DNA of 56,270 nucleotides, counting the filler, from Dugesia japonica (taxonomy: Eukaryota), in NCBI GenBank assembly GCA_001938525.1. It is 5 parts of 5 records of this genome, joined end to end, with 100 filler letters (N's around TTAATTAATTAA, not from the genome) between each part and the next. Parts side by side here need not be neighbours in the genome. Positions count along the whole stretch, not along the records: positions 44,543 to 56,270 come from MQRL01625802.1; 4 more parts are not named here. The stretch is one strand, 5' to 3'. The first letter of the stretch is position 1. Every line of letters starts with the position of its first letter. Shown here in pieces: positions 2,855-56,040 of the stretch. Below the pieces are notes generated by a model. It had not been told where the DNA came from. It did not search any database and saw nothing but the letters and a program-made list of their open reading frames with translations. Position numbers and translations under genes: made by a program.

Positions 2855-3010
2855 GTTTTATAATTACAATTATTGCGAGAATAATTGTTTGATGCAATCG
2901 TTGATCATTTATCAGGTTTCATTAAAATAAAAGCTTCGATCAAATTGTTTTTTGTTTGTTATAATATTTCGAACTTTCGACTTAGTCTTCGTCAGGAATT
3001 GAAGTCAATT
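2855..3010 (-). mobile_element. Penelope-type terminal-repeat (pLTR) copy with minimal hammerhead ribozyme
   Basis: Minus strand reads AATTC-CTGACGA-AGACTAAGTC-GAAA-G-TTC-GAAAT, followed by the family tail GATCGAAGCTTTTATTTTAATGAA...ATTATTCTCGCAATAATTG. Confidence 0.7.
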
Positions 3011-6239: not shown

Positions 6240-6545
6240 TTATAACTGTTTTCACATGTATCATTCTTATTTCTTCTTCAAAGAATGTATTAATTTCTCT
6301 ACTATTATAAATGTTACTTCCTTGCACACCTCTGAAACTACAACTTTCAAACGTATCTTTCCAATTGTCTCCAATGAGCTGTTATTTGCACAATACAATT
6401 GTTCCTCGCTTTTCTTTAACATTGTTTCTCCGAGTATCCCAAATTCCTTCATACTCATTACATTTATTCTTGCTCCTATATCTAACAAACCATCAAACTG
6501 TTCACCCTTGATTATCACTGAATTGTTAGGTCTCCCTTGCATTTT
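6240..6545 (-). mobile_element. Ty3/gypsy aspartic protease fragment
   Basis: IIKGEQFDGLLDIGARINVMS is a degenerate LLDTGA motif, followed by LYCANNSSLETIGKIRL. Confidence 0.75.
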
Positions 6546-6579
6546 ATCATATGAAATTATATTTTAGTTGGATCTTTTT

Positions 6580-7720
6580 TTTACATCTCTTTACTGATAA
6601 CGTGTCCCAAAAATTTAATCTCATTTTGCATGAATTTACATTTCTTCATATTAACTCTTAGACAAGCATTCTTAATTTCTGTCAGTACTTTATTGATTAT
6701 TTCATAGTGTTGCTACTTTGTTTCGGTAAATATGAGAATATCATCTAGATAAAACATTGCTTTTTTTATTTTCCCGATTACTTTATTCATCATTTCCTGG
6801 AAAGTACCTGGTGCTGCTGCAATTCCAAAAGGCATTCTATTGAAGCATTTCGTCCACATTTGGCATAGGAAAAACTTGTCTTTCTGTTATTGTATTGAGT
6901 TGTCTAAATTCTAATCATAATCGTATATCCTTTTTTATCTTTTTCCAAACTCAGATTAATGACGTATTTCATTGAGAATTACACTTCCGGATGATACCAT
7001 TATCATAAAGATTCTTGATGGCCACTTCAATCTTCTCTTTTAGATTCATTGGTTGACGATATAGTTTTATGTTGATTGAACCTTCTCTAGTAATTATTAG
7101 ATGCTTCGTTAAATGTATGCATCCAGTGACCAATTTGCCCGCCATAAATACATCCTTATTATTCTGAATAATCACAGTCAATCTATGATCTTAATTAATT
7201 TCTAGAATCTCCATTGTATTTCTCAATCGTTCACTTGTATGTATCTGCTTCCAAATTTTGCCTCGTTATCGCAAACANNNNNNNNNNNNNNNNNNNNNNN
7301 NNNNNNNNTGCACGTTTTTTGAAGATGATACCCAAAAATATTCCGAAATTCTACTCCACCAATTAGATCTGTCAAGGGAACAGCTTTATTTGATATTCTA
7401 CATAGTTTTACTTCTTCATCTTTTAGAAATTCAATATGTTTACCGAACTGAATCTTTAAACTTTTTAATTATTTCATATAGTTTCTTTAAAAGAACATCA
7501 GACAATTTTATTTCTTGCATATTTAAGTTTTCTACATTACCTTTTAATATTTGATAACACCTAGAGAGATCACTTTCTATTTCCGGTTCAATAATTGCTC
7601 CACCTATTTGACAGGCATTACTTCTCCATTCATCTGTTACTGAGAAATTGTATATTGTTTCTTCTCCATCACATTCATTTATTAATGTGAAATTGTCTAC
7701 AAAATTTTCTCCACTCATAA
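6580..7720 (-). mobile_element. Ty3/gypsy reverse transcriptase remnant
   Basis: Motifs KLYRQPMNLKEKIE..GIIRKCNS, RMPFGIAAAPGTFQEMM, FYLDDILIF and KFLGHVISKE, disrupted by stops and frameshifts. Confidence 0.85.
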
Positions 7721-8238
7721 TGTCAATTACTCTACTTTCTGTCCCATCTACTATAACTTATGCTCCATCATTTACATCGCTTTCTTTTCTAATATATACG
7801 CTTTCTGTTATGATTTAAAATTTTAATCATTGATCGCATTAAGCATAAAACTTTCATTCTGCAAATAGTTTGACATAAGACGTTTACTGGTCATCGCATT
7901 AGGCATGAAATGTTTCATTTCCGTTTGAATAAGGTATAAAATGTGTTACATTTTTCATAACATTCTAAAATAAACTAAATTTCAATTAATTAGAAATAAA
8001 AATAAGTTTATTAATTTTCCTCTTTTGCATTATATTGATAATGATATCATACATAATTATCTAAATATTGGGGAAAGCAGACACTAAGATCCAACATAAA
8101 ACAAGCACACATACATACAAAAATAAAACACAACAAAACGCAACAATCAATCCAACAGAACAATCAACCCAAAAATAATATTTGGAAAAAAACATTAAAT
8201 TTGTGATAAATGGAATAATTTTAATGAACAGTATAATT

Positions 8239-8338
8239 NNNNNNNNNNNNNNNNNNNNNNNNNNNNNNNNNNNNNNNNNNNNTTAATTAATTAANNNNNN
8301 NNNNNNNNNNNNNNNNNNNNNNNNNNNNNNNNNNNNNN
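8239..8338. other. Artificial scaffold gap with six-frame-stop linker (N44-TTAATTAATTAA-N44); also at 20721-20820, 32145-32244 and 44443-44542
   Basis: The same 100-bp structure occurs four times. Confidence 0.95.
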
Positions 8339-14500: not shown

Positions 14501-17500
14501 ATAATAAGTAAGAAAAATAATAATTGAAAAATAAATTTAGAAAATAAATAATAGGTATAAAAATGAAAGGTAAAATTAATTAATAAGACAGTAAATTAAT
14601 TTTAAAGTAAATTTAATTATTCTTGAAAAAAATAATTATAATAAAGTTAAAGCACAAATAAAAGAACTGTAATTAAAATTTATTTAACAAATTTTGCTTG
14701 ATGCTTCAATGCTGATTTTGGTTTTACAGGTCTTTCTCAATTACGTCTCTCACTAATCAGAATATTGCTACTGCTGGTGGTTTACATTGTTTCAAACGTA
14801 TTGCCATTCAAACAAAATGCTTGCAGATATAATCTTTCATATGGACAGAACAACTACAAATAAATTTTTACCAATCAGCTTGATTTGCAAGTAGACACCA
14901 TATTTTTAATGATTTTTTCTACAGCAAAAATGTTTTGTCTTTACCAGTTTCAATTATATTTTCTTCATTATTGTAAATAAATGTTTTTCTTTTTATAAGT
15001 AGTAAATATATATTTATATATATAATTACAATAGGGATGCAACACATATGCAACACACATGCATCCCAAAATCAAGTGTCTGTGATTTTTAGACTGCTCG
15101 AACATTCATCTAAAAACTCCCCAAGCCCTCCACACTATGATTTTCAAAAATACTTACACATACACCCACACCCCAGAAATAATCGAAACCATGGCTTTTC
15201 TTATGCTTTTATCTTTCCTCTTTTTAATAAAAATAAAGCACACTTCAAATTTTTTTTCGTGTACCTATACTACTTACAAACCTTTAAACGTTAACCATTA
15301 AAAAATATATCAATAATCAATCAAATCTACGCAAAACCACCATCATCACCTGCAGCAACATCGCTTCTTTACAACAACGCTAAATTCCCACAAATTTAAA
15401 AACATAGTTTAAAATGAGCGATAACTCATCACTACGGTCATGCTGACAGAAATTTGTAATCCTCAGGCACATTTTACAATATTAGTACTTTAGAAAATGC
15501 ATAAGACAAATTCGAGGGCTCAGTCAAATCTATCCTCGAAACCTAAAAATCAATAAACCACACACATACCTAGTGAGAAAATTTTCGTTTTTTCACTATA
15601 TCTTTACGCACACACACATCAATTCCATAAAAGTGAACCCATATGTGCGCCTTCAATTTCCACACAACCCCAATACTCACAAAAAAATATTTTAAAAAAA
15701 TTTAAAGAAAATTAAAACAAAATTTAAAATTAGTTGTACACAATTAGATTTTAAAAATTTATTTTATAACTTATTTTTGTGATACAAATTTTAAAAACAA
15801 ACTTGTCTTTAATAAATTCCATTTTAAAACCCAAAAAATTCCAATCTGTTTTAAAAGACTATCTTATAAATATGATTTAAAGATTTTGAAATATTTATTT
15901 AAAAAACACTCAATGACACTATAATGAATATGTAACCTTTAACGACCTATTATATTATTATTTTCGAGTACTTCAAAGTATACACATACGCACATACATT
16001 CAATCATGAATACACATTTTTAAATACATACATCAATTGACGACTTTAAATATATAAACATCGACATATGAATATTATAGAATTCACAGTCACGTTTCAC
16101 AATGATCTTAAAACAAACTATTAAAAATATAAACCAACCTGTAGACATTTCATAAACTGTTGCACCAACTGACCATATATCAGTTTCGAGATTATAATTT
16201 TTACCACAAATCATTTCGGGTGACATGTAACACTTAGTCCCACACATCGATTTCGAGGAAAAAGTTGATTCAGAAGTAAAAATGCGACTAAATCCAAAAT
16301 CAGCTATTTCAATATTTCCAAGTTCATTAATCAAGATGTTGTCACCTAATTGGAATGGATAAATAAAATTTAACAATTATTCTAAAGTACTTTTAATGTC
16401 TCTATGACATATATTACCAATGTGAAGATACGCAACACCTTCAAGGATTTGTTTGCTATATTTTTTTATAGTTTCTTCAGATAGAAATCCCCCCATATTT
16501 TTAATTTCATCTTTTAAGGATCCCTAGAAAATATTTGAATTATTGATAAAATATTAAATAAAATATAATTATATATAAATATAATTTTAATTATGTAAAT
16601 ACAAAATTTCTCTGCATTTATTCATTAATTAGTTTAATAAAGCAAATAAAGAAATGTTTTATTTTCGATGATATAAATATTTAGAAATATTCATTAATAC
16701 GAGATAATAATGTTCATAAAATGTATATTTTAAATTTTTTTCAAAATTTTAATAGCCATTATTATATTTTAAAAGGTTACCGTATTTTACGCAAGATACC
16801 GCGTACCAGCAGATAACGCGCATCTTACAGGGTTTTCAACTTAATTTAATCATTTTGCAATTTAATTTAATCCTTTTGCAATTTTGTTTAATGTTTTCAA
16901 AATTTAGTAAATATTTAAATAATCTAAAATTATTATAAAATTAGTTATTACTTCTTTCTCAACATAATCCAATAAATGTCCTATAAACATATTAAAAGAT
17001 ACACACAGCTGCCAGTACAGAAATATTTTTAATTCTTATTGCCCGAAAAATTTTCCTTGGTGTTGTATTGATTAAACTTTTTCCAATTTTTGTCTCGAAG
17101 AGCAACTTATTCCAAACTCATCAAGAAATATCACCTTATATTCATCATAAATTAAATATTTCACTCAATGATCATACCTTTTTTCAATATTACTTTCTGA
17201 ATTTCTTTGTTGAGGAATTAATTGTATTCTTTTAAAGGAATAATTTAATGTTGTTATTGAATTATTAATGGTACTAATACTAGCTTTAATATTAAGTTCG
17301 GATTGTAATTTATTTTTCAACTGATTTGAAGTAATTGAAACATCTTCTTCTATTGCTGGTCGAATAAAATTTTTACCTTTTTCAGTTATAATTTTAGTTC
17401 NAGCTTGTCGATTACACTTAGCTGAAATTCTGCCAATAGTTTTATAAAGTCTTATAACCGAATTTATAGTTTTATAATTCAACTCAAGTTCCGAAGCTAT

Positions 17501-19601
17501 TTGAGCCGGAGTTTTATCATCATCATATTTGTTGCAAATACGGGATCTGATATCTTCTGTGAGCTGTTTTTCTCTCGAAATAATGTTTTCCATTTTAGAT
17601 TATTTAAATATTTACTAAATTTTGAAAGCATTAAACAAAATTGCAAAAGGATTAAATTAAATTACAAAAGGATTAAATTAAATTTCAAAAGGATTAATCG
17701 AATTGATAAAATAAACACTTCGCTTTTCAATACAGTTTTTTCCCTATGTATAACGTGCATAGTCATATTTGCTCGATTTATATACTTTTTGTATAGATAA
17801 TGCGCAAGGCGGAAAATACGGTAATTGATTTTAAAATAATATATTTCGGTATTTTTAAGTAAATGTTTTTCACTTGTTAATTACTGATCGGTATTTATCA
17901 AATAAAAAGTTTCGAAATGCTATAAATTGACAATTGACAACCTCATTGTTTTGATCTCAGCATTTTGCCAAACATTATTGATAAATATAGATCAACATAA
18001 ATATATATCGATTCTGAGGCGCCTGTAACGTCCGTAATTTTTGAATTTATTTTTAATTTTTCAATCTGAGAATATTTTGCAAATTTCTTTGGTTTGAATT
18101 AATAAAAGAGGAGTAAAATTCAATGTTATTACAATAACGCGTTAGTATTTATTTGCTCCACTATTTCGTTATAAAAAATATTGCGAGTAAATTGCCTTGC
18201 GTCATTTAGTAATGGTTCTTGTAATTCACACAAAATGTCACGGTTGATCGGATTTACTAGATCATCCCAAACTAATTCAAATATCCGTTAACCATTATGG
18301 TATATTAGTTTGTAAATTTCAAACCATTGATACAAATTATCATTGACTTTTTACTTGTGTGCGAACGTTTCAGAGTGAGGCAATGAGCGAATATTTAGTT
18401 TATCTTAAATATATCAATTTAAATATCAACGTTCCAGCGTTAGTCAGTGAGTGAATTAAGTGTTTATATTATAAATGTTTTTCGTTAAAGTGCGATGATC
18501 ATTAACAATTTTTCCTTGATAAAGTGATTCGTTGATATACATTCTAAGGCTTTCATAATTTCTGTAGCGAGTAAGTGCAACATCGACTTGGCCATGAGAG
18601 AAAACTGGTTCAAGTAAATACACGTCCAATTTATCAAATTATTGACCTTGGCCTTAATAATGGTTATAGAGAATGCCAAGATTACTGGAAAATTTTAAGC
18701 ATATCAATTAAGATTTAAAACTTTTAAATTTATAAGTTTAAAATTTATTAGCTTAAAATATTTTGTTTAACTGAAGCGTTCAAGAGTGAATCAACCAGTG
18801 AATGAATAGCGTAATGATATTAAACATGGTTAACAAGTGAAAACATTTATTATAATGCTTATTTAAATTAACTGCAAGCATTTTCAATAAATTTAATGTT
18901 GTAAAATCTTAACCAAACTAATTGCGAATAACAAAGAGAGAAAGAAACTTACAAAGCCATTAATGATAGAGTTCCCAAATTTATGTTAGTCTATTACATT
19001 AGAAAAACGTACTTATTTGAAAAATCATTAATACAACTTGAATAAAATAAGAACTATGAAAATCAATAAATATTGCTACGATATAAATTTATAATAGATA
19101 ACTTAATAAATTAATTCTTTATGAAAAAATTCAACTTATCATGTAAACCCAAAAATTAGTGCGGCTTTAGAATATGCAGCATTAATCACAGAATAAAGTA
19201 AGCATTATATATATATATATATATATAACACCATTTAAAATAAAACTTTATTGTTAAATATTTCATCATCAGACAAAATGCAAAATATGAGATTATTCAA
19301 ACAAAGATTCAAGTAATTATATAATTTTACAAACTACTTACACGTTCCATAAATTTCATAAAAATGAAAAAGTATTTATCGTTTTTTACGGTTCCATAAT
19401 ATTTTATAATTCTTTCATGATTAATAAGAGGTTTGTATTCATCAATCTTATTTTCAATATATCTTATATCATCATTTGTATCACAATTTAAACGTTTTAT
19501 TGCAAAAACACGATTTGAATTTGATTCCGTTGCTTTGTAAACAGTGCCAAAACCGCCTTTTTTAATAACTTTGTCTTTTTTGAAATTTGTTGTTGTTACA
19601 G
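11520..19601 (-). CDS. Ser/Thr protein kinase, MAP3K/STE11 (MEKK)-like; 5'-incomplete, 4 exons
   Basis: Exons 19601-19342, 16523-16391, 16345-16139 and 11755-11520 are all GT-AG and phase-consistent. Protein: KKGGFGTVY..FAIKRL..HERIIKYYG..IFMKFMER|GSLKDEIK..KQILEGVAYLH..HRDIK|SDNIL..ADFG..GTKCYMSPE..DIWSVGATVYEMST|GETP..LQCNPKKRATATELL. The first exon begins at a TTTAG acceptor with no ATG. Confidence 0.92.
12330..15730. repeat. Array of a ~600-700-bp repeat unit in tandem and inverted orientation, inside a kinase intron
   Basis: The anchor AAAATAAAGCACAC occurs at ~13364, ~14069 and ~15229 (+) and ~12743 (-). Units share TGTAACC.TCAG.C and TAATCCATCAAA motifs. Orientation flips near the gap at 13294-13336. 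Confidence 0.8.
14690..14950 (-). mobile_element. MULE-type transposase C-terminal remnant (SWIM finger)
   Basis: ICSCSVHMKDYICKHFV*MAIRLKQCKPP is a CxC..CKH SWIM motif, followed by a degenerate RP.KPKSAL basic tail. Confidence 0.5.
16780..17821 (-). mobile_element. IS630-Tc1-mariner superfamily element, internally deleted, with long inverted arms
   Basis: Ends are TA-CCGTATTTT ... AAAATACGG-TA. A ~90-bp inverted repeat lies at 16841-16930 and 17592-17690. ORF 17593-17165 encodes HTH domains (PAQIASELELNYKTINSVI; LKNKL..NIKASISTINN), then VIFLDEFG and IILD of the DDE core. Confidence 0.85.
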
Positions 19602-19658
19602 CTAAATTAATATTCAATTTTAAATTAAAAAATTGATATGAAAAAATTCATAATAAAG

Positions 19659-20820: not shown

Positions 20821-22345
20821 CTATTACCACTTCCTTTTCCTCTTTGCATTGACTAAGGACTGCACCGATAGCCCCAAAACTAGCATCAGTGTCTTAAATG
20901 AACATCCGATCTTCTCTTGGATATTCTAATACTGGATCACTACACAGCTTGTCTTTTAATGCATTGAAACTGTTGTAGCATGTTTCTGTCCAAACTAACG
21001 GTTTGTTACAACCTGAAGTTGATTTATATAAAGGAGCTGCTATCTTTACATAATCGTTTATTAAACATCTGTAGTAGTTTGTTAGTCCGAGAGGCAAACG
21101 AAGTTTTGAAGAACATTCTGGAACTATAGCATTATTAATTACCTGAATTTTAACTTTATTAGAGCGTATACCAGTTGCACTAACTTTATGTCCCAAGAAT
21201 AACACTTCTTTCTAATAAAACGTAGATTTCTCTGGGTTTATTCTTAATCCCGAGTCTCTGGTCATGTAAAAGACTGTCTTTAACATTTTATTGTGATCCT
21301 CCAAAGTTTTTCCGTACACCAGAATATCGTCCAGATATACAATAACTCCTTTGAAAATTAATTCCTCCAATAACTCGTACATTAACTTTTAAAAAGTGGT
21401 CGGTGCTGTAGCTTTTAATATGCTGTCTTTTAATGAGCATTGGTATCGTTTATGCCCATGTTCTGCGTAGCAATAACTTTGTCCGTTTTGGGCATTTTTC
21501 TTACTGAGATTCTGGAAATCCTCTATTTCTATTAAAATAACATCTTACCAAATATTTTATTGATACTGTTGGTTTCGGCCTCATCACTTGTGTTCTATCT
21601 TCCATCACCACTGGTTGTATGTTCCTCTCATAAAATCTTTTACAGGCAAATTTTTTACGTCTATCCTCTTCAACTCTATTTATGTACGGTTTAACTACAT
21701 TTGCAAAACATTTTTTTTATCATACAAATATCTTCTTTTTCGGAGATTCGTTGATAATGTTCTTTATCTTCGTAAATCTTTGCTAGGGATCTCATTTCCG
21801 TGATCTTCATATCAGGACGTGTTGTTAATGTTTTTCTCAACTTTGTATTTTTAACCTACTTTGAGAGTACGTCATTAATTATTTCATCTTTACTTAGTCC
21901 TGAATTCATGACATTATCAATCAGATTTCGTACTCTGATTTCGAATGTCTCAGATCGTTCTTCGCTCTCTTGTTTTACCATTGCTAATTCTAAAACCAGC
22001 TCTGAAAACGATTTTATTTATCATGAATGTGTCCGTAAACCATATTTTGGCTATCTCCATTGTGATTTCAATATTTTAAAGAATTCCTGCTTCGTCTGAC
22101 AGTAGCAAACCAAAGATATCCATCAAATTAAAATCGTTAACGATTGTTTACTCTTCGATATGTTTAAACCCTTTTGAAGCTTCTTCTACACCTTTTCCGT
22201 CATATTTTCTAACGTTAAAATTCATTAACTCTTGCGCTTTGTTTGGTAACGCATCTAAAATTGCTTTCCGTTGATGCTGTTGTCTTGTTACCGCATTTAC
22301 AGTTTTGGTGTGGATGCCAGTTACAATATTCTTGTCCTCTATCAT
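20821..22345 (-). mobile_element. Ty3/gypsy gag-pol remnant (gag, zinc knuckle, RT C-half, RNase H)
   Basis: Gag-like start ..VRKYDGKG; degenerate knuckle CYAEHGHKRYQC; VYLDDILVYG; FLGHKVSATGI..LGLTNYYR; DTDASFGAIGAVLSQ. Confidence 0.88.
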
Positions 22346-22439
22346 ATTTCAATAACAACTAAGAATAGACACTTTATTAAACATAATTTATAACGTTAAT
22401 TCGTATTATTCAAACAACGTTATTTCGAATTTCCATAAC

Positions 22440-23832
22440 TAAGATCAAATTTTTGGGACACGTTATCAGTAAAGAAGGTGTCAAAACAGATCTAACTAAG
22501 ATAAAAGCAATTAAAAACTTTGGTAAATCAAAATGCGTTAAGAAAATCAGAAGCTTTTTGAGAACTTGCAATTACTACCGAAAGTTTATTAAAGATTATT
22601 TGAAAAAAAGCTAGATTGCTGGAACAATTGCGTAGTCAGCCGAGTAACAAGAAAATTGGCAAACGAATTAGAAGAAGTTTTTAATGGAATGAAAGAAGCA
22701 CTAATGATGTCTCCAATATTATATTTTCCAGATAAAAATAGGATTTATTTTGGACACGAATGCGAGTTTCAATACGATTAGGGCAGTACTATCTCAAAAG
22801 GACAACAATGGGGAAGAAAAAGTAATTGCATACGCAATGACGAGTTACGAGAAATGATATTGTACTTCGTGGAAAGAATTGTTCGCAATTTACTACTTCT
22901 GTATTCATTTCAAACATTACTTATATGGGTAGAGATTTATCCTCAGAACAGACCATAAAGCTATCACTTTTATGCTAAATAACATGAAACCGATCACATC
23001 ACAGTTTCAAACTTGGATTAATTATTTGAGCAGTTTAGATATAAAACTGGAATATAGACAAGGATCACTTCATACAAATGCAGATATGTTGTCAAGGAGT
23101 AAATGCGATATATGTGCACAGCCAGCCAAAATGTTTGAGTTGTTATTTTTATGTTATGTACAGAAGATAAGAGGTTGGAAAAAATATGTTCTTGGTATAA
23201 TAGATCAATGCAGTAAGTATGTAATAACAAAACAAGATGAAGATACCATACGGCAGGCAATAATGGAGAAGTGGATATTAAAGTTCGGGTGTCCGAGAGA
23301 AATTCGAGTTGATTGTGGAAGAGCATTTGAGTCTAAAGCAATGAAAGATTTTGCCGCTGAAAATTGAATTATCCTCAGGCTTTAGAGTCCATATCATCAT
23401 AACAAAAATGGACAAATTGAGAGACAGTTTAGAACTATGCAGGATTTGATAAATGCAATACTTAAAGAAAGAAAAACCTTAGATTGGACTGATGTATTGC
23501 CAGAGATAGAATTTACTTTGAATGCTACAAATCAGAAGACCATCGAGAAAGTCCCTGCTGAAATCGTATTTTGGAAGAAAATAAGCATAGAAAAAAGGTA
23601 CGAAACCGATACTAAAAAGTGCACAAAGAGCAAGATGAAGAGAAACTAACCAAAAGACAATTCGAGGTCGGTGATGATAAGATGAACGTCGAAACAAGAA
23701 CCAAGATCGTTTTGAAGGAACATATAAGATCAAGAGGAAGGTTCACGACAGACGTTACATCCTGGAAGATACAAACGGAAAAGTCTTAAAAGAAACGAAG
23801 ATATAATCAAAAAATCTTTTTAAAAGGGAGAT
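22440..23832 (+). mobile_element. Ty3/gypsy pol 3' part (RT end, RNase H, integrase) with polypurine tract
   Basis: KFLGHVISKEG; ELFAIYYF..FILRTDHKA; EYRQGSLHTNADMLSR; LGIIDQCSKY; FGCPREIRVDCG; PYHH..NGQIERQFRT; RFEGTYKI. PPT AAAAGGGAGA is followed by TG at ~23832. Confidence 0.9.
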
Positions 23833-31747: not shown

Positions 31748-31863
31748 CTAAATAATTAGTTTTATAAACAAAGTAATATTTACATTATACTCATTCTTAT
31801 TATAAGGAAATATTAAGAAAAACAACAAATTTATTTTTAAATGTTTTTGAAGATATATTTAAA

Positions 31864-32025
31864 GAATTCATTAAAATAAAAGCTTCGATCAAATTTCAGG
31901 AATTGATTTTTCCTGACGAAGACAAAATCGAAAATTAGAATTATTATCAAAAACAAAAGAAAATTTGATCGAAGCTTTTATTTTAATGAATACTGAATAA
32001 AAATCAATGGTTACGTCCAACAATA
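31864..32025 (+). mobile_element. Penelope-type pLTR copy with 5' inversion and minimal hammerhead
   Basis: TTTTC-CTGACGA-AGACAAAATC-GAAA-A-TTA-GAATT at 31908-31942; segment 31864-31906 is an inverted copy of downstream sequence. Confidence 0.7.
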
Positions 32026-32869: not shown

Positions 32870-33700
32870 AAAGTAAATGATGAAATTTTTAAAACATTTA
32901 TGTGGTTTTTGTTTTAACATTAGTTGATCAGCCTTCATTTTACTGATGAACTAAAAATAGGAGAAATGCAATGACATGCAATTTATCTGTACGGAAGAAA
33001 TGGTTACCGTATGATTGAAATGAGAAACAAAAAATCGGTCTGCGAAAAAGTCGCAAAACACTTTTGAAAACAAGAACTCTTACCAAAAGAAGATTATGTT
33101 TGCCATTCGGTGTTATGTTAGAGATTTTATTCGTAATGACTTTCTGACTCCTGGAGAAACAAGTAAAACATATTGCAAATGTCAAATCTTCCTCCGATAT
33201 CGGTTAACATAGTAGATCTTATTACTTTTCGTGACAATACCCGGTTATACCATTGCTTAAATGATGATACGAAAGTTCCATGCGTTTGAGTAACATTTTG
33301 CAGCATCCACTTTACTCGCCAGACCTCTCACTTACCGATTATCATTTTTTCAAACTTCTAATGNTCTTCCAACAAGATAAATTTTTATTGAATATACTTA
33401 ATTCAGTAAAATTAAAACTTCGATGAAAAGTCAATTCCTGACGAAGACAAAGTCGAAAATTAGAATTATTATCAACAACAAAAAAAATAAATTTTGATTG
33501 AAGTTTTTATTTTAATGAATTCTGAAAAGCGATCAATGGTTATGTCCAACAATTATTCTCGTAATAATTACAAGTGTAAAACGAGTATACTGCTGAAAAT
33601 GCCTTCCAGTGGTTTATTAAATTATGAACACCGGAATTCTATACTATCATCTTATCTCTCATTGGCAAGCATATTTAAGAATATTTAAACAGTCATGAAT
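32870..33700 (+). mobile_element. Mariner transposase remnant, interrupted by a hammerhead repeat
   Basis: LLFRDNTR (HDNAR-like) and LQHPLYSPDLSLTDYHFFK. Confidence 0.7.
33433..33467 (+). ncRNA. Minimal type I hammerhead ribozyme (Penelope-type), within pLTR copy ~33400-33582
   Basis: AATTC (stem I) CTGACGA A GAC-AAA-GTC (stem II) GAAA A/TT (palindromic stem III) A^ GAATT (stem I'). Predicted cleavage is after position 33462. Confidence 0.75.
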
Positions 33701-37745: not shown

Positions 37746-38040
37746 AAAAGAATTTTTTTAGTAGTTTACCACGTTACACTCTCATCTATATCAGTGTGTA
37801 TTTCGCCTTACAATGGTTTCGGTTCTTAGTGGGTATGATACACGGTTGCGAAAAGTTTATAGTATGCGGCTGGAGACCTCGTTATTAGCTGAATGTGTGG
37901 CGATTAAAATGTGAAATGGCTTAGCAGTACCATTTACTTATTTAATATTTTAATCATTCTTGTTGATTCTCAAAACTAATTGTATTGTTTTAGTCTGTAA
38001 GCTATGTTCCTATGTTACTCGTCAAGATGATTATTAGATA

Positions 38041-38300
38041 TTTATTTAAAAATAAAAACTTCGATAAAAATTTGTTTTTTTGATTTTTTGAGATTATTTC
38101 AATATTTCGACGTTGTCTTCGTCAGGAATTGACTTTTTTAAAAAAGTCAAGTCTTGACGAAGACAAAGTCGAAATATCGAATTAATCTGAAAAATCAAAA
38201 AAACAAATTTTTGATCGAAGCTTTTATTTTAAATGAATTCTGAAAAACGATCAATGCTTTCGTACAACAAATATTCTCGCAATAATTGCAATTTTAAAAC
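38041..38300 (+). mobile_element. Palindromic Penelope-type non-autonomous insertion with two back-to-back hammerheads and a 12-bp TSD
   Basis: A ~200-bp imperfect palindrome centred at 38139/38140. Hammerhead motifs at 38130-38096 (-) and 38149-38183 (+). TSD GATTATTAGATA at 38029-38040 and 38301-38312. Confidence 0.85.
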
Positions 38301-38319
38301 GATTATTAGATAGAAACGA

Positions 38320-40410: not shown

Positions 40411-40540
40411 TCTTTTCTCTCTCTCTCTATATCTATATATTTTTTTTATTTCTTTCTTAAACAAAATTACAAATCAATACATTAATCATAGAAAAAGATA
40501 TTGTATTTGTATTGTATTATATTTTCAATAAATTTCTTTT

Positions 40541-40682
40541 TGAATTCATTAAAATAAAAGCTTCGATCAAAATTTGTTTTTTTTTGGTTTTTAATAATTC
40601 TTTATTTGGACGTCTATGGATTCTGAAAAACAATCAATGATTACGTCCAAGAATTATTCTCGTAATAATTGCAATTGTAAAA
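40541..40682 (+). mobile_element. Penelope-type pLTR copy, hammerhead region deleted
   Basis: An inverted GAATTCATTAAAATAAAAGCTTCGATC arm plus the family tail ATTCTGAAAAACAATCAATG..ATTCTCGTAATAATTGCAATTGTAAAA; flanked by an AAATT(T)CTTTTT near-duplication. Confidence 0.65.
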
Positions 40683-41321
40683 AAATTCTTTTTGTTACTG
40701 TTATTTGCGATAAATCTGATTGCTTTTACATTTTCTGTTTACTCTAAGATTTTATGAAGTTATTTTTTATATAATCAGGATAATATTCATTCTTAAATTC
40801 AGTAGAAGTTCAATTTCAACTATTCTTAACAGATACTAGTGAATATATAATATTTCTTTTACATTATACCTTACTATGAATGAGCTATCGAAAATTAAGA
40901 ATACCCTGAAAATAATTCGCTACAATTGTACTCTGGATATTTGTGTTCTATACAACACTTTGACTATTTTTAGTTCGAATTGAATTTTAAAACTGAGCAT
41001 TCGATAAATTACATTATTTGTTACCAATTAAAACTATAATTATATAATCAATCAACTACAAGTTTTAATATAAATAAAAAATTAATTTCTGTAAAATCCA
41101 ACTTGAAATAAATTGAAAGATAACATATTTACAATANATAAGATAAAGTAGTTTAAATTATTCAAGATTCTTTGAAAATTTTCAATTATTTTTAAAACAA
41201 CTAATCAATTAGTAAAAATATTAAATTACAAATTTTTGTAAAGATATAATATAAGTTCAATTAGAATAAAGTTTTTTTTTATTAAGTGGAACGTATAACA
41301 TATACTATAAAATAACCATAG

Positions 41322-41976: not shown

Positions 41977-42554
41977 ATGTTTTTAAGTTTTTTGCTATTA
42001 ACAAGAAGGGTAATAATGAGACCTAAGGCTGACCGCATTAACTCTAGAGATAAATTCATGAGATTTGCCTTTGTAAGCCATTTGAATTTCTTTTAAAGTT
42101 TATACATTTTTAGAATTTTACACATCGTCATAATCGGTGTTATAAATTAGGTGTAGGTAAAGTTATTAAATTATTTCAAAGAATGAATGATACTCGTGTA
42201 TTACGTCGAGTAACTTCACGGCGTGAATTTGCTGATAGAATTCAAAGAGGATGTTTAGAACATGGTTTTGGATGTCCTGAAGTATTTGTTGATTCATTGA
42301 GACGTATGAACATCGAAATAAATAAAAATATGCTCCAAACTTTATGCATTTATGAGCCTAGAACTTTCAAAGTATGATTATATTCCATATTACGTAATTT
42401 AGCAAAATTTATTTAGAGTTTAGTCAGTGTTGTTCAACAGTATTTATTAGATAATGATTATCATTTTCCAAATATGGGAACGCCTGATAAAGTTATTACT
42501 CGTGGAATGTTAAATTCCCCGATTGTTCCTGGAAATAGAAAATATTATATGTAG
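41977..42554 (+). CDS. MRPL20: Mitochondrial ribosomal protein L20 (bL20m), 3 exons, 163 aa
   Basis: Exons 41977-42072, 42114-42371 and 42417-42554, with 41-nt and 45-nt GT-AG introns. Motifs RHNRCYKLGV, RIQRGCLEHG and NIEINKNMLQTLCIYEPRTFK|SL match bL20m. Confidence 0.93.
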
Positions 42555-42779: not shown

Positions 42780-43230
42780 TTTGATCTAAGTTCCGAATTT
42801 GGGCACTGGTATTTATTATATGGTTTGGGCTGTTCATTGAATATGTTAATAATTTTACCAGTTGTACCGCTTGTCAAATTTTCAGTGACTTATCAAAATT
42901 ATGTCATTAATTGTTTATCCTTCCTGAAGAATTAACAATATTTTAACTAATGTTTTTGATTTGTTAAATTTATCGTAATAAATAGGCGTTAGTTTATGTT
43001 GGGCATCAAGCATTGTAAAATAATTTCAGCTCCCGATTTATCTTTCGCTAGGTAATGAAATGGTCTTGGTCAAACATTTTTGTCAATAATTCCAACCGGT
43101 GCGTTCTAATTGCTTTTGCATAACAAAAAAGTGTTAATCGCTATCTGTTTTGTTTGAAGCCATTAGTAGTAGCTTTCCCTGTTCCAGCTAAAGTAGACTG
43201 TGATAAACCTCGAAAGAATAAATATTTTAA
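42780..43230 (-). mobile_element. pogo/Tigger DDE_1 transposase remnant
   Basis: TLAGTGKATTNGFKQNR*RLTLFCYAKAIRTHRLELL resembles the pogo motif GFK..KDRLT...CANA.G.HKL. Confidence 0.5.
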
Positions 43231-43529
43231 TCAATTTGTTCTTAGAATATATTATCGGGTTTTTAATTTAATATGATTTATTTTTGAATTGATTGTAAAT
43301 TTTTGAATAATTATAATTTTTCAACCTAAACTCATAGATCAGTGGTGTACAATATTTTTTAGATTAACTCGATGCCACGGGCCATGCGTGCAAAGATTTC
43401 GGGCTAAAGGTTGTGCACCAGTTTCAATGAGGTTATTTATTCCTCAAACAAGCTAAAATTAAACATTTTATATAATTATCAATCACATGTCTCACATTGA
43501 TAGGGAAGAGATAGAACATTCTGAAATTC

Positions 43530-44140
43530 TTCGATCTACCGCATTAGTTAGATGTTTATAGTGAGCTTTTGGGATCTTACAATGGTTTTCTATTGAAAAA
43601 ACATGAACTTGATAGGATTGAAAAAATTAGCTGTTGGGGTGAAGGTAGAAACAATATTGAATGATCTTTAGACTCCACAAAAGTGGCTATTTCTGATCAT
43701 TTATGATATGATACATTATCCGTAATGATTATGGCATTGTTAATTTCACTGGCTGTCAATATTCCTATCAGCTCATTCATCTATTCCAACTAGACAATTC
43801 GGTTTTCTGCTTCATTTAATGCTTTTTGAGGAAATATTCCATCTTTACAAATGAAGGCCATAATTGTTTTATTGCGACATTTTATTCCATAAGTATCACA
43901 AATAGCCATTTTCAGATCGACCATGATGTTTTCTTATTGTATCGATAAATTCAGTTTCATCGAGGAAAACTAACTTTCTATCTTCATTAACTACAGACAA
44001 AAATCAACTGCTGTTAGTTTTCTTGGATTCAATTAAAATCTTCTGTTTATAAATGGCATTCAAAACCTTAGAAATTCTTTTCATCGAAAAATCAAAACTA
44101 TCGATATATTGGGTTTTCACGAGTTTAAATGATGTTATTT
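43530..44140 (-). mobile_element. IS630/Tc1-like (DDE_3) transposase remnant
   Basis: RKLVFLDETEF, IITDNVSYHK and FLPSPQQL (degenerate LP.YSP.LN) occur in the expected order. Confidence 0.7.
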
Positions 44141-44542
44141 ATGTGATAGTAGGGGCATACTCATGAAAACCACAAGCATTTTAGCTTCGTGTTNCTTACA
44201 GGCTCTCGGCTTAGTTCCTGTGACTCCTTTTTACGGGAGTGCTGTAACCGCCCATTTGGTTTGTGTCCAGCGAACCAGAATGCTAGTCTCTCTTAGGAAT
44301 ATATTGTTTCTATTTATGTGCGATTCATTACTATCAGGACTTTATTAACGCTTTAAAAAACAAAAATAATTGTAATTTCGTATCATTTATCACTTTATCT
44401 TATAATATTTACAAATTTAAACTTAGGTAAAAAGTTTATGATNNNNNNNNNNNNNNNNNNNNNNNNNNNNNNNNNNNNNNNNNNNNTTAATTAATTAANN
44501 NNNNNNNNNNNNNNNNNNNNNNNNNNNNNNNNNNNNNNNNNN

Positions 44543-46395
44543 CCATCGATCTTTATCCTTTTCTGCAATAATTTTGCTCTCTGAGAAATCATCATACAAA
44601 CCGTTTGTGTCTCCAACTTATCGTCCTCTGTGATTTGGGTATTTGGAGCTTGTAAACTTGGTGCCATTATTCTTCGATCCATAGTGGATACATTATTTTC
44701 TGTTAGCATGGCCATATTCGGGGCTTGTGGTGGGCTCATATATGGGTTGTTATACATCGTGCCTGGTGGTGGTTGGCTCATGGGTTGCCAACCCTGTTGC
44801 GGATACGCGTTATAATACATTTGCGCTGGTGCTGGTATGTTTTCTCCCCCTCCGAACTTGAATGCGTTCTTTAGTCGTTGCATTTTGCTGATCTTTTCGT
44901 ATTGCTGTCTTTTGAATTCCGCATCATATTCCATAGCAGTTTTATAACTGGGTACATGTGGTATTCCGCTGTTTTCTCCTCTATCATCATCGCTACTACT
45001 ACTACTTTCGTCCTTATTTTTAAACCTTTCCTTGAATTGATTGAAATATGATATTTTCTTCTTAGCATTGCTCATTTCTTCGCACAGTAATCGGAGTTGC
45101 ATTATGACTTCCTTGTCTGATCCTCGTATTTGNCCGAGTTTCCGAATGAATCTCTTTACTCTATCGATGTCTTTGGAGTGACTATTAAGTACCATGGTTT
45201 TAGCTAAGAATAGGAAAATGCCTGTCACCATCTTCCAGTTTACTTTTTTCTCCCTTTTGTATATATCGAAGCATGCGAATAATTGCGTGATTACTACTCG
45301 TGCTACCGAGATTATTAACATGACTCCCAACAAGCATGCCATTGCTTGGCCGAATATTATGAATCTTCCCCACATTTTCCTCATAACATTTTCGGTGGCT
45401 TTCTGGAAGTGGTCAGCTGATAGTAATGCGTAATAATTTACTCGTCCGTCGATGTTGGTTCCGCTGGTCAATTGTACGATATTTGAGAGAATTTGCATTC
45501 TTCGAACCGGGAACAACATATATTCTCGTGCTTTTTCTAAGTCTTCTCTACTGTAAATCCCTCCTTTATTTATGTCGATTGGGGTGAATTACATACCCCC
45601 GTTAAGTCGTTACATTGAAAACTTTCGTGGTTCGACTCCTACTGACATTCGTTGTGGGAACCTTATCCATGACTCATCTGTCATTACGTATTGTGGTCCG
45701 AATATGTTAGAACAGTTTATGATATTCGGCCTATAGCCCACTGGTGATATTATTCGAGTAATTGGTTGTACATATCTTTTCTCATTGTTGTGAATGATTT
45801 CTATTTCGTTGTAGCAGTGTTTTGGGTTTGACGAGAATTCTGCATCAATGGCCTTGCACTTATATAGGTACATTACTTCCCCTACTACTCGACCGAATTG
45901 TCCCTTTTCCAATGGGAGTAAAGGAGTGACACTGTCAGGGTTCGTAACTGCCATGGCTAATTTTGTCTTTAATATTTCCTTGTTCAACGTGCAGTCATTC
46001 TGTATGAGATCGTGGTACATTCGTCCGATGGTATCTTGCATTCGATGAAATATATTGTCTAGTTTATTGTTGGTGTAAAGATGTAATTTGATGTCTTGTG
46101 ACATTACCGCTGCTTTCGCTGTTCTTATTCGATGTTCAGATACGAATATTCCTTTATAGTTTGTTTTGAATACTATTTGTCCACACTTCGACATTGAATT
46201 TCCTTTTATTAGTCGGATAGTCTCGTCTTGTTCCGAAGACATTAGCACTGTCAGTGTTGTATGCCATTGCTGGTCATATGACTTTGGACCGGTCCTTATG
46301 GTTTCCTTGATATTATCTATTCTTTCTTTCATGTTACCTTCCTTTGGTGTTTGGTCAATAGGTGATATAGCACGTTGTCCTTGGTATTCATTGTA
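44543..46395 (-). mobile_element. Endogenous chuvirus-like / gB-type class III envelope glycoprotein reading frame (retroelement env), two in-frame stops, both ends truncated
   Basis: ORFs 46332-45610 and 45519-gap are in one frame, joined by FSM*RLNGGM*FTPIDINKGGIYSREDLEKAREY. Motifs: NDCTLNKEIL.TKLAMA..NP, GRVVGEVMYLYKC, CYNEI..YVQPITRI, C..IFGPQY..W, GIYS.EDL..R..MLFP, then two hydrophobic segments. Confidence 0.85.
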
Positions 46396-49300
46396 ATATT
46401 AATATTAATATTGCCCGGGAAGCATCAAATATTTTATGTCAATATTCCCCGGTGAAAATTAATGTAAATTTTGCCCGGTCAGCTAATATTAATATTGCCT
46501 GGCACTATTAATATTAATATTACCGATGCTGGTCTAATGCTAATCGGGAGAAAATTTGCTTAACTACTTACAAATTTAAAGATTTTCATTAATTAATACA
46601 AAAAATTTAATTCCAGGTAATTACGCAATGGTTACATTTATTTAAATTTACACCATGAAAATAAATACATGAAATAGTAAAACAAAAATAAATTATAATT
46701 CAAATTTAAATAAATAAAGTTTTCCCGCAAAAATTAAAGTAAAATAGATTAAATAAATTTATGTAAAAATAATTGAACAAAAAATATGAGCAAAAGTCAC
46801 GTAATCATATCATCCCCGTTAAATGCATATAAAAATCTTTAGGCACAATTAACGTTATCATATGCACACATTATCTATTCTTATCGTCCGGCTAAATTTA
46901 CGTAAAATTTATACACCGCTAATTCGTAATCACATACACATATATAATCCGCGCACAGGGGGGAGGGCTGTGCCAGTGCTGAACTATCTACCTACTTATA
47001 TTAAGGTTAGTTAGACTAATAACAAAAATAAGAAATATATTGGTTAATTAATAAGATTGATAGTAGTAATACTGATATCGTGATGGTTAAACCAATAATA
47101 AATTCAATCAAGCAATACAAATAATAACGTAATGAATCTGATGGTAATAATGTTGAAAGAAACTTTGCAATACTGTCATCATCGGTGACGATTATAATAT
47201 GATTTTAACTTAGATGAATTTACTCCTTCGTATCAATAAAATAACAACAGTATAACGATAATTTAATAATAGCTATAGAAAACTTCATAATAATTACAAT
47301 GCCAGTCATTAGTAATTCTAAAGCTAAGCACTATTCCTTGGTCCACAACACATAGAGGATATTAAGTGTATCAGCTGGCCATATTAGTAATTTTTAGTAG
47401 AAGCGCCTATCTGTTGTTACGTGTGATAAACTTGTCAATGGTCTTAATCCATCGTTACTACCCGTGCGTATTTAATCAATTTTTCTTCAGTACTAGAAAG
47501 AAAAACAGCTGCGATCCCCACTAGCATTTTTGTCGGGATTCTAACAGTAGATAATCGATTGCAGAAAAATAAATATTTTTGCTCGTACCCACAAAGGCTT
47601 AATGGAAAATCAACTCAAGGTAATATCGTGATGCTGATTAGACTCATGTCCATTTTGTTTGTGGGTTTTGTGAGTGTGCTCGATAGATCAGTATCTCTAT
47701 ATTCATAGTCACTAGTACTATCCTGAAATAGACACTACATTCTATCACAACTTCAGCAATGGCAGTGATTATAACTAATAATTTCTAAACCCACCTACAA
47801 CGAGATAACTATCATAATTTAATGACGAAAAATACGGAATTGAATTGATGATAATAGATGACGAGGATTATTTATCAGATGTGTGGGAAAAGATTTGTAT
47901 TTTGCTACATTGCCATAAGAAAATTTAGTGAAAAATACTGACTCGATTCTGTAATGATAACATAGATAATCTGGCTAATTTGCCGATTTGTAGAAATAGT
48001 GCACTGTTAATTTGATTGTAACGACCCACTAACTGAAATAAGAGTACTTTTTCTCGTAATGGCCAATTCTAACTGATCGGTGACATAATACAAATGCTGA
48101 ATTATATTTCAATAGGATTTTTGTAACGATAGAATAAGATAGGTTGATAAGAGACGAGTTTTTTCGTTGAGATTCTTTGGGTTCTGCTGGTGTGCATGGT
48201 TCCTTTATCGGGCTGTTGGATTTAGAGTTGATTTTGGTGGATCTAGAATTATTAACTGTGATAAGTGTGGTAGCCGTGTTGGGATTGTTACTAGTTGAAG
48301 TAGTTTAGGAGTTATGATTTGTAATGAGACTGATTTATTTTATTGGTTGATTACGTAATATGACAAGCCACCATCATAAGTTATGGTTCAATTTTTTGGA
48401 TAAAGAATTGAGTTCATTACGATTTGAGTTCAATATAGCTCTCAATATTAAAAATATGGATTTTATCTTGTGAAATATAGGCATTCCTTTCAATAAAATC
48501 TTTTAATATTTGCTTTCATTTTTGCTTACTGATTGGCATCTTTGCGCGCACTTTGGTTTTAATGGGTTTATTTTCTTTTACTTAATTGTCAGTCAGTAAA
48601 ATCAATCATTTGACTATAACTTATACATTATATAATGTTTTGTTATTGAGTTTTGTTATTTTGTTTATGAGTTTTAACGAATTCGGTTCATCGTTGAAAG
48701 TACTGGCTTAATCATAGAAAAGTTATGAACTTATTAAAAATAAAAGTTTAATATAGAAAATATTTAATAGAGTAAATATACTCACTAATTATATTGCATT
48801 TATTTTGTACGTAAAGTCATTTAATAGGATTAATTTATACACATTTTTGTCCATTTTCGTCTATTTTATACCATTTTGTCATATCTTTAGTCATTTTCCA
48901 TCATTCACCCATATTTTCGCTATTTACCCCTATTTAGCCATAGTTAGCTATATTTTCTCTATTTTCTCACAATTTCCCATTATTCACCCTTCTGTAGCTA
49001 TATTTATCTACATTTTCTCTTATTTTTATTGGGTCTTAATCCTTAAAGAGTAACATTTAAAGATAAAATGATACAATATGACTTAGTGATGGAGAGTAAG
49101 AGCTGATATGACACGCTTCTTATTTAAAATAATATAATTATTTTAGTATATTTTAATTAACTGATTATTATTCTGCTTCTTTGCTTACACCTTAGTTCCC
49201 TACTTGCTCATTGGTAACCGAGTTTGCATTTAAGTTTCCTTGGCTTTAGTTTTCTTTTAAATACCTAATGATCAGTTACATTGTTAGAAATAAGGAGTTC

Positions 49301-53399: not shown

Positions 53400-55419
53400 A
53401 AATTAAAATTGAAAAATGCTCGTATTCTCTAAGCCAAACTCTTCTGAATTAAGTTTAAAGATATGGAATAATATCAAATACAAAAATATGATAATGATTT
53501 CCAAATTTAGAGTCTATCTTTTCTCTGTCTAGAATTTTTTGATCACTCAAATAATTTCAACAAAAATAGTGTCTTAAAAACCATCAATTTCAATTTAAAA
53601 TATGCACTCTCATTACATATTTATCGCTGCGTTTATAGTTCTCAATATAAGTGCTGTCGTCAGCATCTCTTTTAATTCTTTGTAGCTTTCTTCACATTCT
53701 GAATTCCATTTTACTTTGTCACACATCTTCTTGTTTCGGATATCTGTTAATGACAAAATAATGAGAGTTTAATTATTGATATGAGCCCTATAATAATTAG
53801 CATTCCGATAAACTGGCGAACATCTTTCTTTGATTTAGGGCGGGAAAGGTCTTGTATTATTGCAACTTTGTCTGTCGTTCGGGAAACCTCTTCTTTCCCG
53901 ATCATCTTACCTAGAAACTCGATTTGAAACATCAAAAGCTAACTTTTTATAGGATTACTTGCAAGGCCGGTAGCCAATAATGCTTTTAGTGCATTTCCAA
54001 AGTTTCAATATACTCTTGATTCGTATGTGAATAGACTATAATATCATCTAAAAAAGCAGCAGTATTAGGAATATTTTTTAAGTAGACTATCCATCATTCT
54101 TTGATAAGTTGCTGGGGCACTTTTAAATCCAAATGACATTCTTTTAAACTGACAAAGAACAAAATGAGTAATAATGAGTAAATGCACTTTTAGATCTGTC
54201 CTGGAGTTTTTTTGGCATCTGATAATATCCCTTCGTTAGATCAATTGTACTAATATATTTTAAATTTCCTAACGAATCAATAATTTTTCGATTTCTTGCA
54301 TCGGATAACAGTTAAAACGTGTCTTTTCATTAATTTGCGTTAATCCTGCACTAATCTTAGTGTTTCATTTTTTTGAACGAATAAGGTAGGACTGGCATAC
54401 GAACTTGATGATTCTTCAATTATATCTTCCTTAAGTAACATCGCGATTTCATTCTTTACAGTATCTCAAGCAAATGTGCCACTACATAAGACTTGAGAGC
54501 CATTGGCTTATTATCAGTTAATTGAATGCTGAATTCCGTTGACCTTGTCAATCCTGGTTTCAACGAAAAAACGTCTTGGTAAAGTTCTACCAGTTTTTTA
54601 CACGTTTGAAATAATTCATCTAACAGTTCTTTATTGATTTGCACGGTATTCTAATCCGTTATTGCGGATTCAGATTTGAGAGCTGATTGTACGAGTATTT
54701 CTTGCTGATTTATCCGTGGGCTCAGAAGATTAACGTGAAATGTTCTTTATCTTTTCTTTGTTCATTCTGTGTCAACTTTTAGTTAACGTTTTTAATTTGT
54801 TCTACAATTTTATAGGGACCCTGCCATCCTGACATAATTTTATTAGCAGATGTCAGTAATAGAACTAAAATTTCATCGTAGGGAACAAATTGTATACCTC
54901 TTGATTTTTTATCATACTATTTCTTCTTTTTTGATTTTTAAGGTTTTTTTGCTGTAACTTTATTTCTGTAACTTGCATTAATTTATCTTTTAAGTTTAAC
55001 ACAAATTCGCAGATGTTTGATTCAACACCTTCTTTACACAATGTCTCTCTATTAGCCTTGAACATCAGATCCAAACAATAGTTCAAAAGGACTAAATCTC
55101 AAATTTTCATGGTTTGAGGATCGATACGCTTAGCATAAATATGGCAAGATTTTCTCCCAATATTTACCATTGATATCCGCTGATAATGGACTTAGCATCG
55201 TCTTTAGAGTACCATTGAATCTTTTACATATTCCGTTAGTCTGAGGGAAATATGGGGAAGTTCTGATGTGTTTGATGCCAGGAAAATTATATAATTATGT
55301 CATTATTGAGATTAAAAAGTTTGTTCCCTGATCAGTAAAAATTTCAGTAAGTATACCTACCTTACAGTAATAATGAGAAATTTTCCTAGCCACTGTTTCT
55401 GCCCGCATATTTGGAATTA
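53400..55419 (-). mobile_element. Gmr1-like Ty3/gypsy pol remnant with integrase upstream of RT
   Basis: 5' to 3': TDQGTNF, TSPYFPQTNG..RFNGTLK and WQGPYKI (integrase/GPY); then DVFSLKPG.T, IIEESSSSYASP, IDLTKGYYQ, RMSFGFKSAPATYQRMM, FLDDII and FLGKMIG (gypsy RT). Confidence 0.88.
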
Positions 55420-56040
55420 GCAGGTGTGGCTAAACTTTAGGGGCTACTATTTCTGTAAAATATGATCTGCGGGCGACAAAGAATATAAAAGGAAACGTTT
55501 AGGATGTTTTATATTTTTCAAAGATATTTTGACAAAAAAATAATAAAATTTTGAAAGAAAATATATTTAATTAAACGACACTTGACATTGCATAAATGCT
55601 GCAGATTTTTCAAAGTTTGGCTCATGCGAACCTAACACAATTCTTAGACACGATTCCAAATGTTTATCTGTTAATTGCGATCTATGTTTTGTTTTGATTG
55701 CATTTGGAAATGAAAATGCAGATTCACATAAGTATTTTGATCCAAAGAAAGCATTAAAACGTGCAACAATTATTCAAATATTTGGATATTTATCTTTATT
55801 TATCAGTTTCCAAAAATACAATTGAAAACCATTGACATAAGATTTATGTCATATTTTATATTTATTATTTCTTCTTCCAAGTCTTGTAGTGGGGGGAAAG
55901 TTGTTTAGTTTCTGACCTATGTTTTCAACATCAACGTGGTAATTAAACGGGTAAGATAAGAAACTTGAAATATTTTTGTTAGGTAAATCTTCAATTGTTG
56001 ATTCATTTTGAAAATCAGAATTCATATTGTTAGACATTTA
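55420..56040 (-). mobile_element. hAT (Charlie/Buster/SPIN-like) transposon 3' end
   Basis: FWKLINKDKYPNI..FGSKYLCESAFS..IKTKHRSQLTDKHLESCLRI..EPNF..QCQVS is a hAT dimerisation domain. The TIR-like CAGGTGTGGCTAAACTT at ~55420 interrupts the gypsy integrase. Confidence 0.85.

Follow-up and report, generated by a model that had tools for sequence, protein, structure and literature searches.

A decayed chuvirus-related envelope frame in Dugesia japonica, very probably from a Burro-like GAG-ENV-POL retrotransposon

A reading frame on the minus strand of a Dugesia japonica genomic sequence is, with high probability, a decayed internal fragment of a Burro-like planarian GAG-ENV-POL element, an LTR retrotransposon of the Ty3/gypsy group whose single reading frame extends from Gag to integrase. 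The frame lies in a window of 56,270 nucleotides (assembly GCA_001938525.1), that is, the whole stretch of DNA analysed, which consists of five parts of five records joined end to end. It occupies positions 44543–46395 and comprises 617 codons. Its translation is the C-terminal half of a fusion glycoprotein of class III (gB-type), related to those of chuviruses, beyond which it continues in frame through a long linker towards a putative protease. The features of the locus are collected in Table 1.

Table 1. Features of the envelope locus and its immediate flanks, in window coordinates
Feature	Position	Strand	Basis or remark
Chuvirus-related gB-fold (class III) envelope gene, C-terminal part	45151..46392	(-)	PF24664, AlphaFold, Foldseek
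Env membrane anchor, ~residues 343-372, basic patch after	45280..45369	(-)	Kyte-Doolittle max 2.51; 5 K/R in following 20 residues
Second, weaker hydrophobic segment, residues 385-403	45187..45243	(-)	Kyte-Doolittle 1.35
Env tail-to-protease linker, ~190 aa	44572..45150	(-)	Ser/acidic patch, then Pro/Gln/Tyr/Met-rich stretch
Putative first beta-strand of a retropepsin-type protease, LLQKRIKIDG	44543..44571	(-)	PSSM 9.6 bits; abuts assembly gap
Fixed 100-base spacer (44 N + TTAATTAATTAA + 44 N)	44443..44542	.	pol would lie here
Non-coding block, minus-strand end ATCACA (plus TGTGAT)	44142..44442	(-)	Possible LTR end
Tc1/IS630-type transposase, decayed, 3' part only; target of block insertion, outside env element	43440..44141	(-)	Pfam DDE_3 E 2.4e-5; three-frame translation
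131-bp MITE-like element, 29-nt terminal inverted repeats; envelope gene cut here at 5' side	46393..46523	.	Arms 46393-46421 + 46495-46523, 90% complementary

The only stops in the frame are two TAA codons, at codons 262 and 269 (45612–45610 and 45591–45589), with no frameshift and a single N-containing codon (GGN at 45135). When the nucleotides of the frame were shuffled (n = 2,000), the mean number of stops was 41 and the minimum 23, and, of all runs of codons without a stop in the window, the two longest fall inside the frame. It is rich in A (39%) and poor in T (21%), compared with 35% T across the window. The terminal codon at the assembly gap is GG+N, and because this encodes glycine with any third base, the final residue before the gap is Gly. 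A first-pass annotation had described a minus-strand frame of about 615 codons with two TAA stops, which the recount bears out, and every peptide motif that it cited is present on translation. The two stops are just 7 codons apart, a spacing expected in about 2% of cases by chance in a frame of this length; some local event, or poor consensus quality at this spot, may account for it.

Two stops per 1,851 bases correspond to about 2% neutral change (95% range 0.2–7%). The other remnants in the window are older than the envelope fragment, which is nonetheless dead. The earlier description of a young insertion thus holds in a relative sense only, and for a copy that is truncated. With its 5' half lost and two stops in Env, this copy cannot work. 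That the frame is nonetheless a working gene, either as a host-domesticated envelope or through reading of TAA as an amino acid, is exceedingly improbable: the length of the frame, its freedom from frameshifts and the fact that its two neighbouring stops are both TAA would fit such a gene, but the half with the signal peptide and fusion loops is gone, an inverted-repeat insertion forms the 5' end, and neither a promoter nor a splice site was found there. Reassignment of TAA was rejected on codon counts unlike the pattern of a reassigned codon, since TAA accounts for 2 of the 617 codons, against 27–29 each for AAA, GAA and CAA, and none of the 87 codons of the neighbouring L20 exon is an in-frame TAA.

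For the Pfam search, the frame was translated straight through, with X in place of the stops. Residues 45–380 (46263–45256) match PF24664 (Monjiviricetes_fusion) with an E-value of 4.8e-59 and 200 bits, against a cut-off of 27. The match covers profile positions 245–579 of 653 only; positions 1–244, that is, the signal peptide and the fusion-loop half (about 240 N-terminal residues), are missing, and the ectodomain is incomplete. What is left spans the end of domain II, the central helix, the crown, the arm, and the membrane anchor. An AlphaFold model of residues 1–415, based on a 97-row alignment, has a mean pLDDT of 86.4 and contains a 48-residue helix at residues 104–151. All listed Foldseek matches in the PDB are herpesvirus gB, with five chains at E ≤ 0.001 and low TM-scores (0.22–0.35), while the best matches in BFVD are chuvirus G (E 1e-18, TM up to 0.52). 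The structural comparison proposed in the first-pass annotation, of the ectodomain with chuvirus G and herpes gB, therefore finds a match to both, and its class III assignment stands for the C-terminal part that is present. A sequence search of the PDB with the frame gave 0 matches, and a search of the ESM Atlas returned nothing usable. Neither an HMM of the N-terminal half of Env, built from 10 relatives, nor tblastn with 18 relatives found a further match in the window.

Two hydrophobic segments had been proposed, and they differ in strength. The first is a strong membrane anchor, followed by a basic patch. The second is weak, and a membrane crossing there is unlikely; the same difference is seen among relatives, in which the second segment reached Kyte-Doolittle values of 0.99–1.58 in all 14 of those scored, compared with 1.79–2.53 for the first (14 of 16 relatives were scored, the other two being without the anchor motif). 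The second segment probably forms an amphipathic helix that lies along the cytosolic side of the membrane.

Past the second hydrophobic segment, the frame goes on for another 215 residues, the last of which resemble a protease strand. The linker that makes up most of this extension has no Pfam match and contains no canonical late-domain motif. For its last residues, a position-specific scoring matrix of 10 columns was derived from 25 protease sites in 16 relatives, where a glycine stands six residues ahead of the hydrophobic-hydrophobic-D-T/S-G motif in 19 of the 25 sites. The peptide LLQKRIKIDG ranks first among the 200 windows of the tail and second among the 609 of the frame; the single higher-scoring window (10.0 bits) sits within Env and includes an X. 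A score as high as its 9.6 bits was seen in 3 of 25,020 null windows and in 3 of 40,000 shuffled windows, and true protease sites, scored by leave-one-out, have a median of 11.5 bits with a wide spread (-4 to 19). The distance from Env to the protease is 277 residues, and 13 relatives span 124–465. In both register and distance, LLQKRIKIDG fits the strand before L-I-D-T-G; the first-pass annotation had likened it to the strand ahead of an LLDTG protease site. The catalytic Asp is expected 8 codons into the gap, and the protease is therefore inferred rather than seen. On a test of 10 residues, the frame thus appears to end in the first strand of a retropepsin, with Env in frame directly ahead of the protease.

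The case for a polyprotein rests chiefly on relatives of the frame. A search for longer proteins returned one match among 2,591 candidates (P0002), and a search for proteins of the same length returned two among 3,919. P0002, the best long relative, has 2,099 residues, is 40% identical, and reads Gag-Env-PR-PR, with a weak Retrotrans_gag match and a CCHC knuckle, followed by Env and two proteases. P0004 carries an Env tail, a protease and a reverse transcriptase (RT), in that order, and among solved structures this RT is nearest to that of Ty3 (E 2e-45). Of 910 matches obtained with HMMER among 1.84 billion representatives, the best 150 were listed, and 23 of these, picked as top-ranked or long, were scanned for domains. 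Among these 23, P0006, P0008, P0024, and P0038 encode Env-PR-RT-RH-IN in a single open reading frame and P0011 encodes Env-PR-RT-RH, all with a gypsy-type Pfam set; together with P0004, six relatives have Env, protease, and RT in one frame. Markers of gag or a CCHC knuckle lie upstream of Env in P0002, P0008, P0012, P0014, P0015, and P0038.

An envelope-core tree (FastTree, midpoint-rooted) was built from 139 sequences, namely the window and 138 of 152 candidates; the 14 left out overlapped by fewer than 220 positions, and four of them bear a protease. The window falls within a 19-member clade with a support of 0.965, where its sisters are P0003 and P0013, the latter 95% identical to the start of P0004. 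A protease motif follows Env in the same open reading frame in 12 of the 18 clade relatives, compared with 0 of 120 sequences outside the clade, and the six clade relatives without the motif all end no more than 69 residues after the match. Clade members that carry enzymes always have them after Env, and always of the gypsy type. From these sequence comparisons, the Env of the window belongs to a lineage of GAG-ENV-POL polyprotein elements whose enzymes are Ty3/gypsy and not BEL/Pao. The layout in relatives, with Env-PR in 12 clade members and Env-PR-RT in six proteins, indicates that the first-pass annotation guessed correctly in placing env inside the polyprotein, upstream of PR-RT. Among the matches listed, the closest relatives are just 46–49% identical, and an intact copy of this exact family is therefore not among them.

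These comparisons bear on two other origins of the frame, both very unlikely. One is a solitary integration of the glycoprotein gene of a chuvirus-like RNA virus (a non-retroviral EVE), with a tail that is unrelated or due to chance. Chuvirus and related glycoproteins are indeed what the family model describes and what the viral structure library matches best, insect genomes often harbour solo chuvirus glycoproteins according to the text of PMC7642597, and neither gag nor pol is visible in the window copy; against this, stand-alone glycoproteins of about 650 residues are only some 19–29% identical and lie outside the clade, polyprotein relatives are 32–50% identical, and the frame has its long tail with a protease-like strand at the end. 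The other origin is an Env placed after integrase, as in BEL/Pao elements of the Anakin type or in canonical gag-pol-env gypsy elements, whose tail would run into the 3' LTR. P0068, which carries a BEL-type DUF5641 before env, has such an order but falls outside the clade of the window, and the enzymes of clade members lie on the other side of Env. Env of the chuvirus type also occurs in Anakin and in gypsy elements of insects, as the text of PMC7642597 and PMC13524379 relates, and an LTR-like end lies just beyond the gap; yet the insect and BEL rows seen in the published alignment have a motif of the TEHP/TDHP type at the place where the window has the Schmidtea-type TNY.G.

Several further features of the relatives were observed. 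Two or three retropepsin motifs per polyprotein occur in 7 of 16 relatives (P0002, P0005, P0006, P0007, P0010, P0014, and P0015), and in P0006 one of them is located after integrase. A tree of 23 protease domains is poorly resolved, and three within-protein pairs cluster in it with supports of 0.66–0.99, so some of the duplications look local. Between the protease and RT, P0004, P0006, P0008, and P0011 contain a segment of 130 residues that is dUTPase-like by eye and has no Pfam match.

On its 5' side, the envelope gene is cut by the inverted-repeat element, at which the composition turns from A-rich to T-rich. Past 46523, no env or gag homology was detected by tblastn, HMM or Pfam, and tblastn with 18 relatives found no gag in the window. 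On the other side, the frame runs into a spacer that recurs identically four times in the window (at 8239, 20721, 32145, and 44443); the pol of this copy is absent from the assembly here, and 1.85 kb of coding sequence is left. The block at 44142–44442 lies across this spacer, so no distance from the frame can be assigned to it. It ends exactly where the remnant of a Tc1-type transposase begins mid-gene, which fits the end of an insertion, and its CA end is at a real junction with that remnant, although such a terminus carries no information on orientation. The first-pass annotation had offered this block, with its initial TG and a minus-strand AATAAA, as a 3' LTR. Both features exist, the AATAAA at 44346, but the latter was rejected as evidence for an LTR and attributed to chance, since 106 of the 177 300-base tiles of the window carry one on the same strand. 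No second copy of the block and no target-site duplication are visible in the window, three-frame translation of the block gave no Pfam match, the 5' half of the Tc1 gene was not found upstream of the env element, and Rfam gave 0 matches over 43000–48000. Whether the block is the 3' LTR of the env element is, in our judgement, close to an even call.

If the frame is a remnant of a Burro-like GAG-ENV-POL element, as preferred here, a mechanism for its intact family can be proposed. Such an element would encode Gag, accessory domains, Env, protease, RT, RNase H, and integrase as one reading frame. Judged by the general behaviour of membrane polyproteins, its chain would have a cytosolic Gag, an internal signal, a lumenal Env, one anchor, and a linker and Pol in the cytosol. 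Gag would be produced in the cytosol, after which an internal signal just ahead of Env would thread the ectodomain into the ER, where signal peptidase would presumably cut. In all eight scored relatives that have the N-terminal half, the first conserved Env motif has a hydrophobic stretch ahead of it. Transfer would then be stopped by the single membrane anchor, and the linker and PR-RT-RH-IN would therefore remain cytosolic, to be released by the element's own protease. Gag, Env, and Pol would be made 1:1:1 and tethered to one membrane, and enveloped particles could bud there and fuse with another cell via the gB-fold trimer. What the sequences themselves show is the Env fold, the anchor, the in-frame linker, the putative first strand of the protease and the domain order of relatives; processing, particles and infectivity belong to the proposed model. 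Among the 18 clade relatives, a Bcl-2-like domain is found directly ahead of Env in P0009 (Pfam E 1e-3) and P0005, and weakly in P0018. In these three the domain lies 50–80 residues ahead of the start of Env, at which distance the internal signal could serve also as its tail anchor.

A broader proposal, which is possible but doubtful, is that GAG-ENV-POL elements are budding viruses, infectious from cell to cell, with an alphavirus- or flavivirus-like polyprotein, often with two or three tandem proteases, and with ESCRT-recruiting signals that sit on the Env-protease linker and not on Gag. The Pro/Gln/Tyr stretch of the window would then be a divergent equivalent, and the sub-lineage with P0003 and P0013/P0004 may come from a host group for which no such elements have yet been listed. 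YPxL binds ALIX, and PPxY binds Nedd4-type ligases. In the Env-protease linkers of 14 relatives, YPx[LI] occurs in 8 (0.58 expected by shuffling), [PL]PxY in 3 (0.56 expected) and PSAP in 1, with patterns that were chosen post hoc; the linker of the window itself has none of the three. As a sequence pattern, YPx[LI] would also fit a tyrosine sorting signal. A linker-borne reading of budding signals was not met in print in a narrow literature search confined to article text.

The window is eukaryotic in character, with 27% GC, a number of decayed transposons and short GT-AG introns, the last judged by eye from the L20 gene. The low GC, together with the affinity of the envelope, would fit a triclad flatworm as host. 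The gene for mitochondrial ribosomal protein L20, at 41977–42554(+), has introns of 41 and 45 nucleotides and a TAG stop, and is 71% identical to its sole protein match. Protein kinase exons are recognised by Pfam at 16023–16376 and 19330–19647 (-). The 5' part of a Tc1-like transposase lies at 17168–17599(-), with an HTH match and a 93-bp inverted repeat to 16838–16930. The segment at 4379–4708(+) resembles, by motif, the end of a forkhead domain and has no Pfam match. A dispersed, partly palindromic family of MITE-like repeats of 150–200 bp is represented at 38040–38306, 33378–33588, 31838–32024, 2855–3010, and 40537–40690. Decayed gypsy pol remnants lie at 6270–7757(-), 20822–21406(-), where one ends at a spacer, and 22396–23646(+). 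A further decayed gypsy-type remnant, at 53640–55465(-), has integrase upstream of RT-RNase H, the order of the Gmr1 clade; it could also consist of two fragments. These four gypsy remnants are 9–38 kb from the env frame, and nothing links them to the env element.

The env locus itself is of small weight, being one decayed copy of a layout on record since 2019 and the subject of a survey in 2026. It adds a divergent family to the GAG-ENV-POL group, less than 50% identical to the matches found. Its relatives give a testable picture, in which a single Gag-Env-Pol chain would cross the membrane twice, be processed and bud; in the literature consulted on these elements, as far as its text goes, no tests of such a mechanism were met. 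If particles do move between flatworm cells, these elements would be an independent case of a retrotransposon turned enveloped virus.

The Burro or GYPSM1 elements, giant gypsy elements of planarians, were reportedly described by Jurka in 2007 and by Grohme et al. in 2018, and nematode elements with one continuous gag-env-pro-pol open reading frame are said to have been reported by Sacco et al. in 2022. For Burro/GYPSM1, Arkhipova and Yushenova (PMC6431247) in 2019 annotated an env that is in frame, with gag before it and pol after it, and that is similar to mononegavirus fusion glycoproteins; the novelty of the layout that the first-pass annotation had implied is thus not sustained. According to the text of that source, decaying Burro fragments with stops are reported in Dugesia japonica. 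Like the clade of the window, Burro/GYPSM1 encodes a single polyprotein in which PR follows Env immediately and in frame, and its enzymes are of the Ty3/gypsy type. It also has a BCL2-like domain before env, as do the relatives P0009 and P0005, and its described dUTPase may correspond to the segment in P0004, P0006, P0008, and P0011. In contrast to these giant elements, with an internal region of up to 25 kb, long LTRs and BIR, MATH, ankyrin, BCL2, and Ubi domains, the window holds a 1.85-kb fragment, likened to Burro-1 to -4 by description only.

GAG-ENV-POL gypsy elements with a gB-type env are recorded in Nematoda, Bryozoa, and Platyhelminthes in the text of Chary and Hayashi 2026 (PMC13524379), whose first supplement, restricted to intact elements, lists nine from flatworms, six of them from Schmidtea mediterranea. 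These Schmidtea errantiviruses (HSV/gB-type, group C1a) share with the family of the window an Env placed before pol and a gB-type fold. In the second supplement, the six Schmidtea ENV rows share with the window the motif T-V-L-M-S ... K-C-G ... T-N-Y-K-G-I, which among the rows compared is common to these six only. Over residues 45–85, the window is identical to them by eye at 16–20 of 41 positions (39–49%), and it is therefore none of the six listed Schmidtea elements. The GAG-ENV-POL gypsy elements of nematodes and bryozoans (Sacco et al. 2022, cited in PMC13524379) have the same gene order and a gB-type env, but the env rows seen for them in that alignment have no visible similarity to the window motif, and according to the same text they do not form one clade. 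The glycoproteins of chuviruses (Jingchuvirales) and of Anakin (Dezordi et al. 2020, PMC7642597) share the Pfam family and fold of the envelope frame; they differ in that the chuvirus-type glycoproteins stand alone, outside the clade of the window, and that Anakin is a BEL/Pao element. Troyka elements were ruled out as a counterpart, as they encode no envelope according to the text of Kojima 2025 (PMC12440569). The placement of Env before pol is already known and, since an env inside the polyprotein has already been described in flatworms, the copy in the window is a new example of that layout rather than a new kind.
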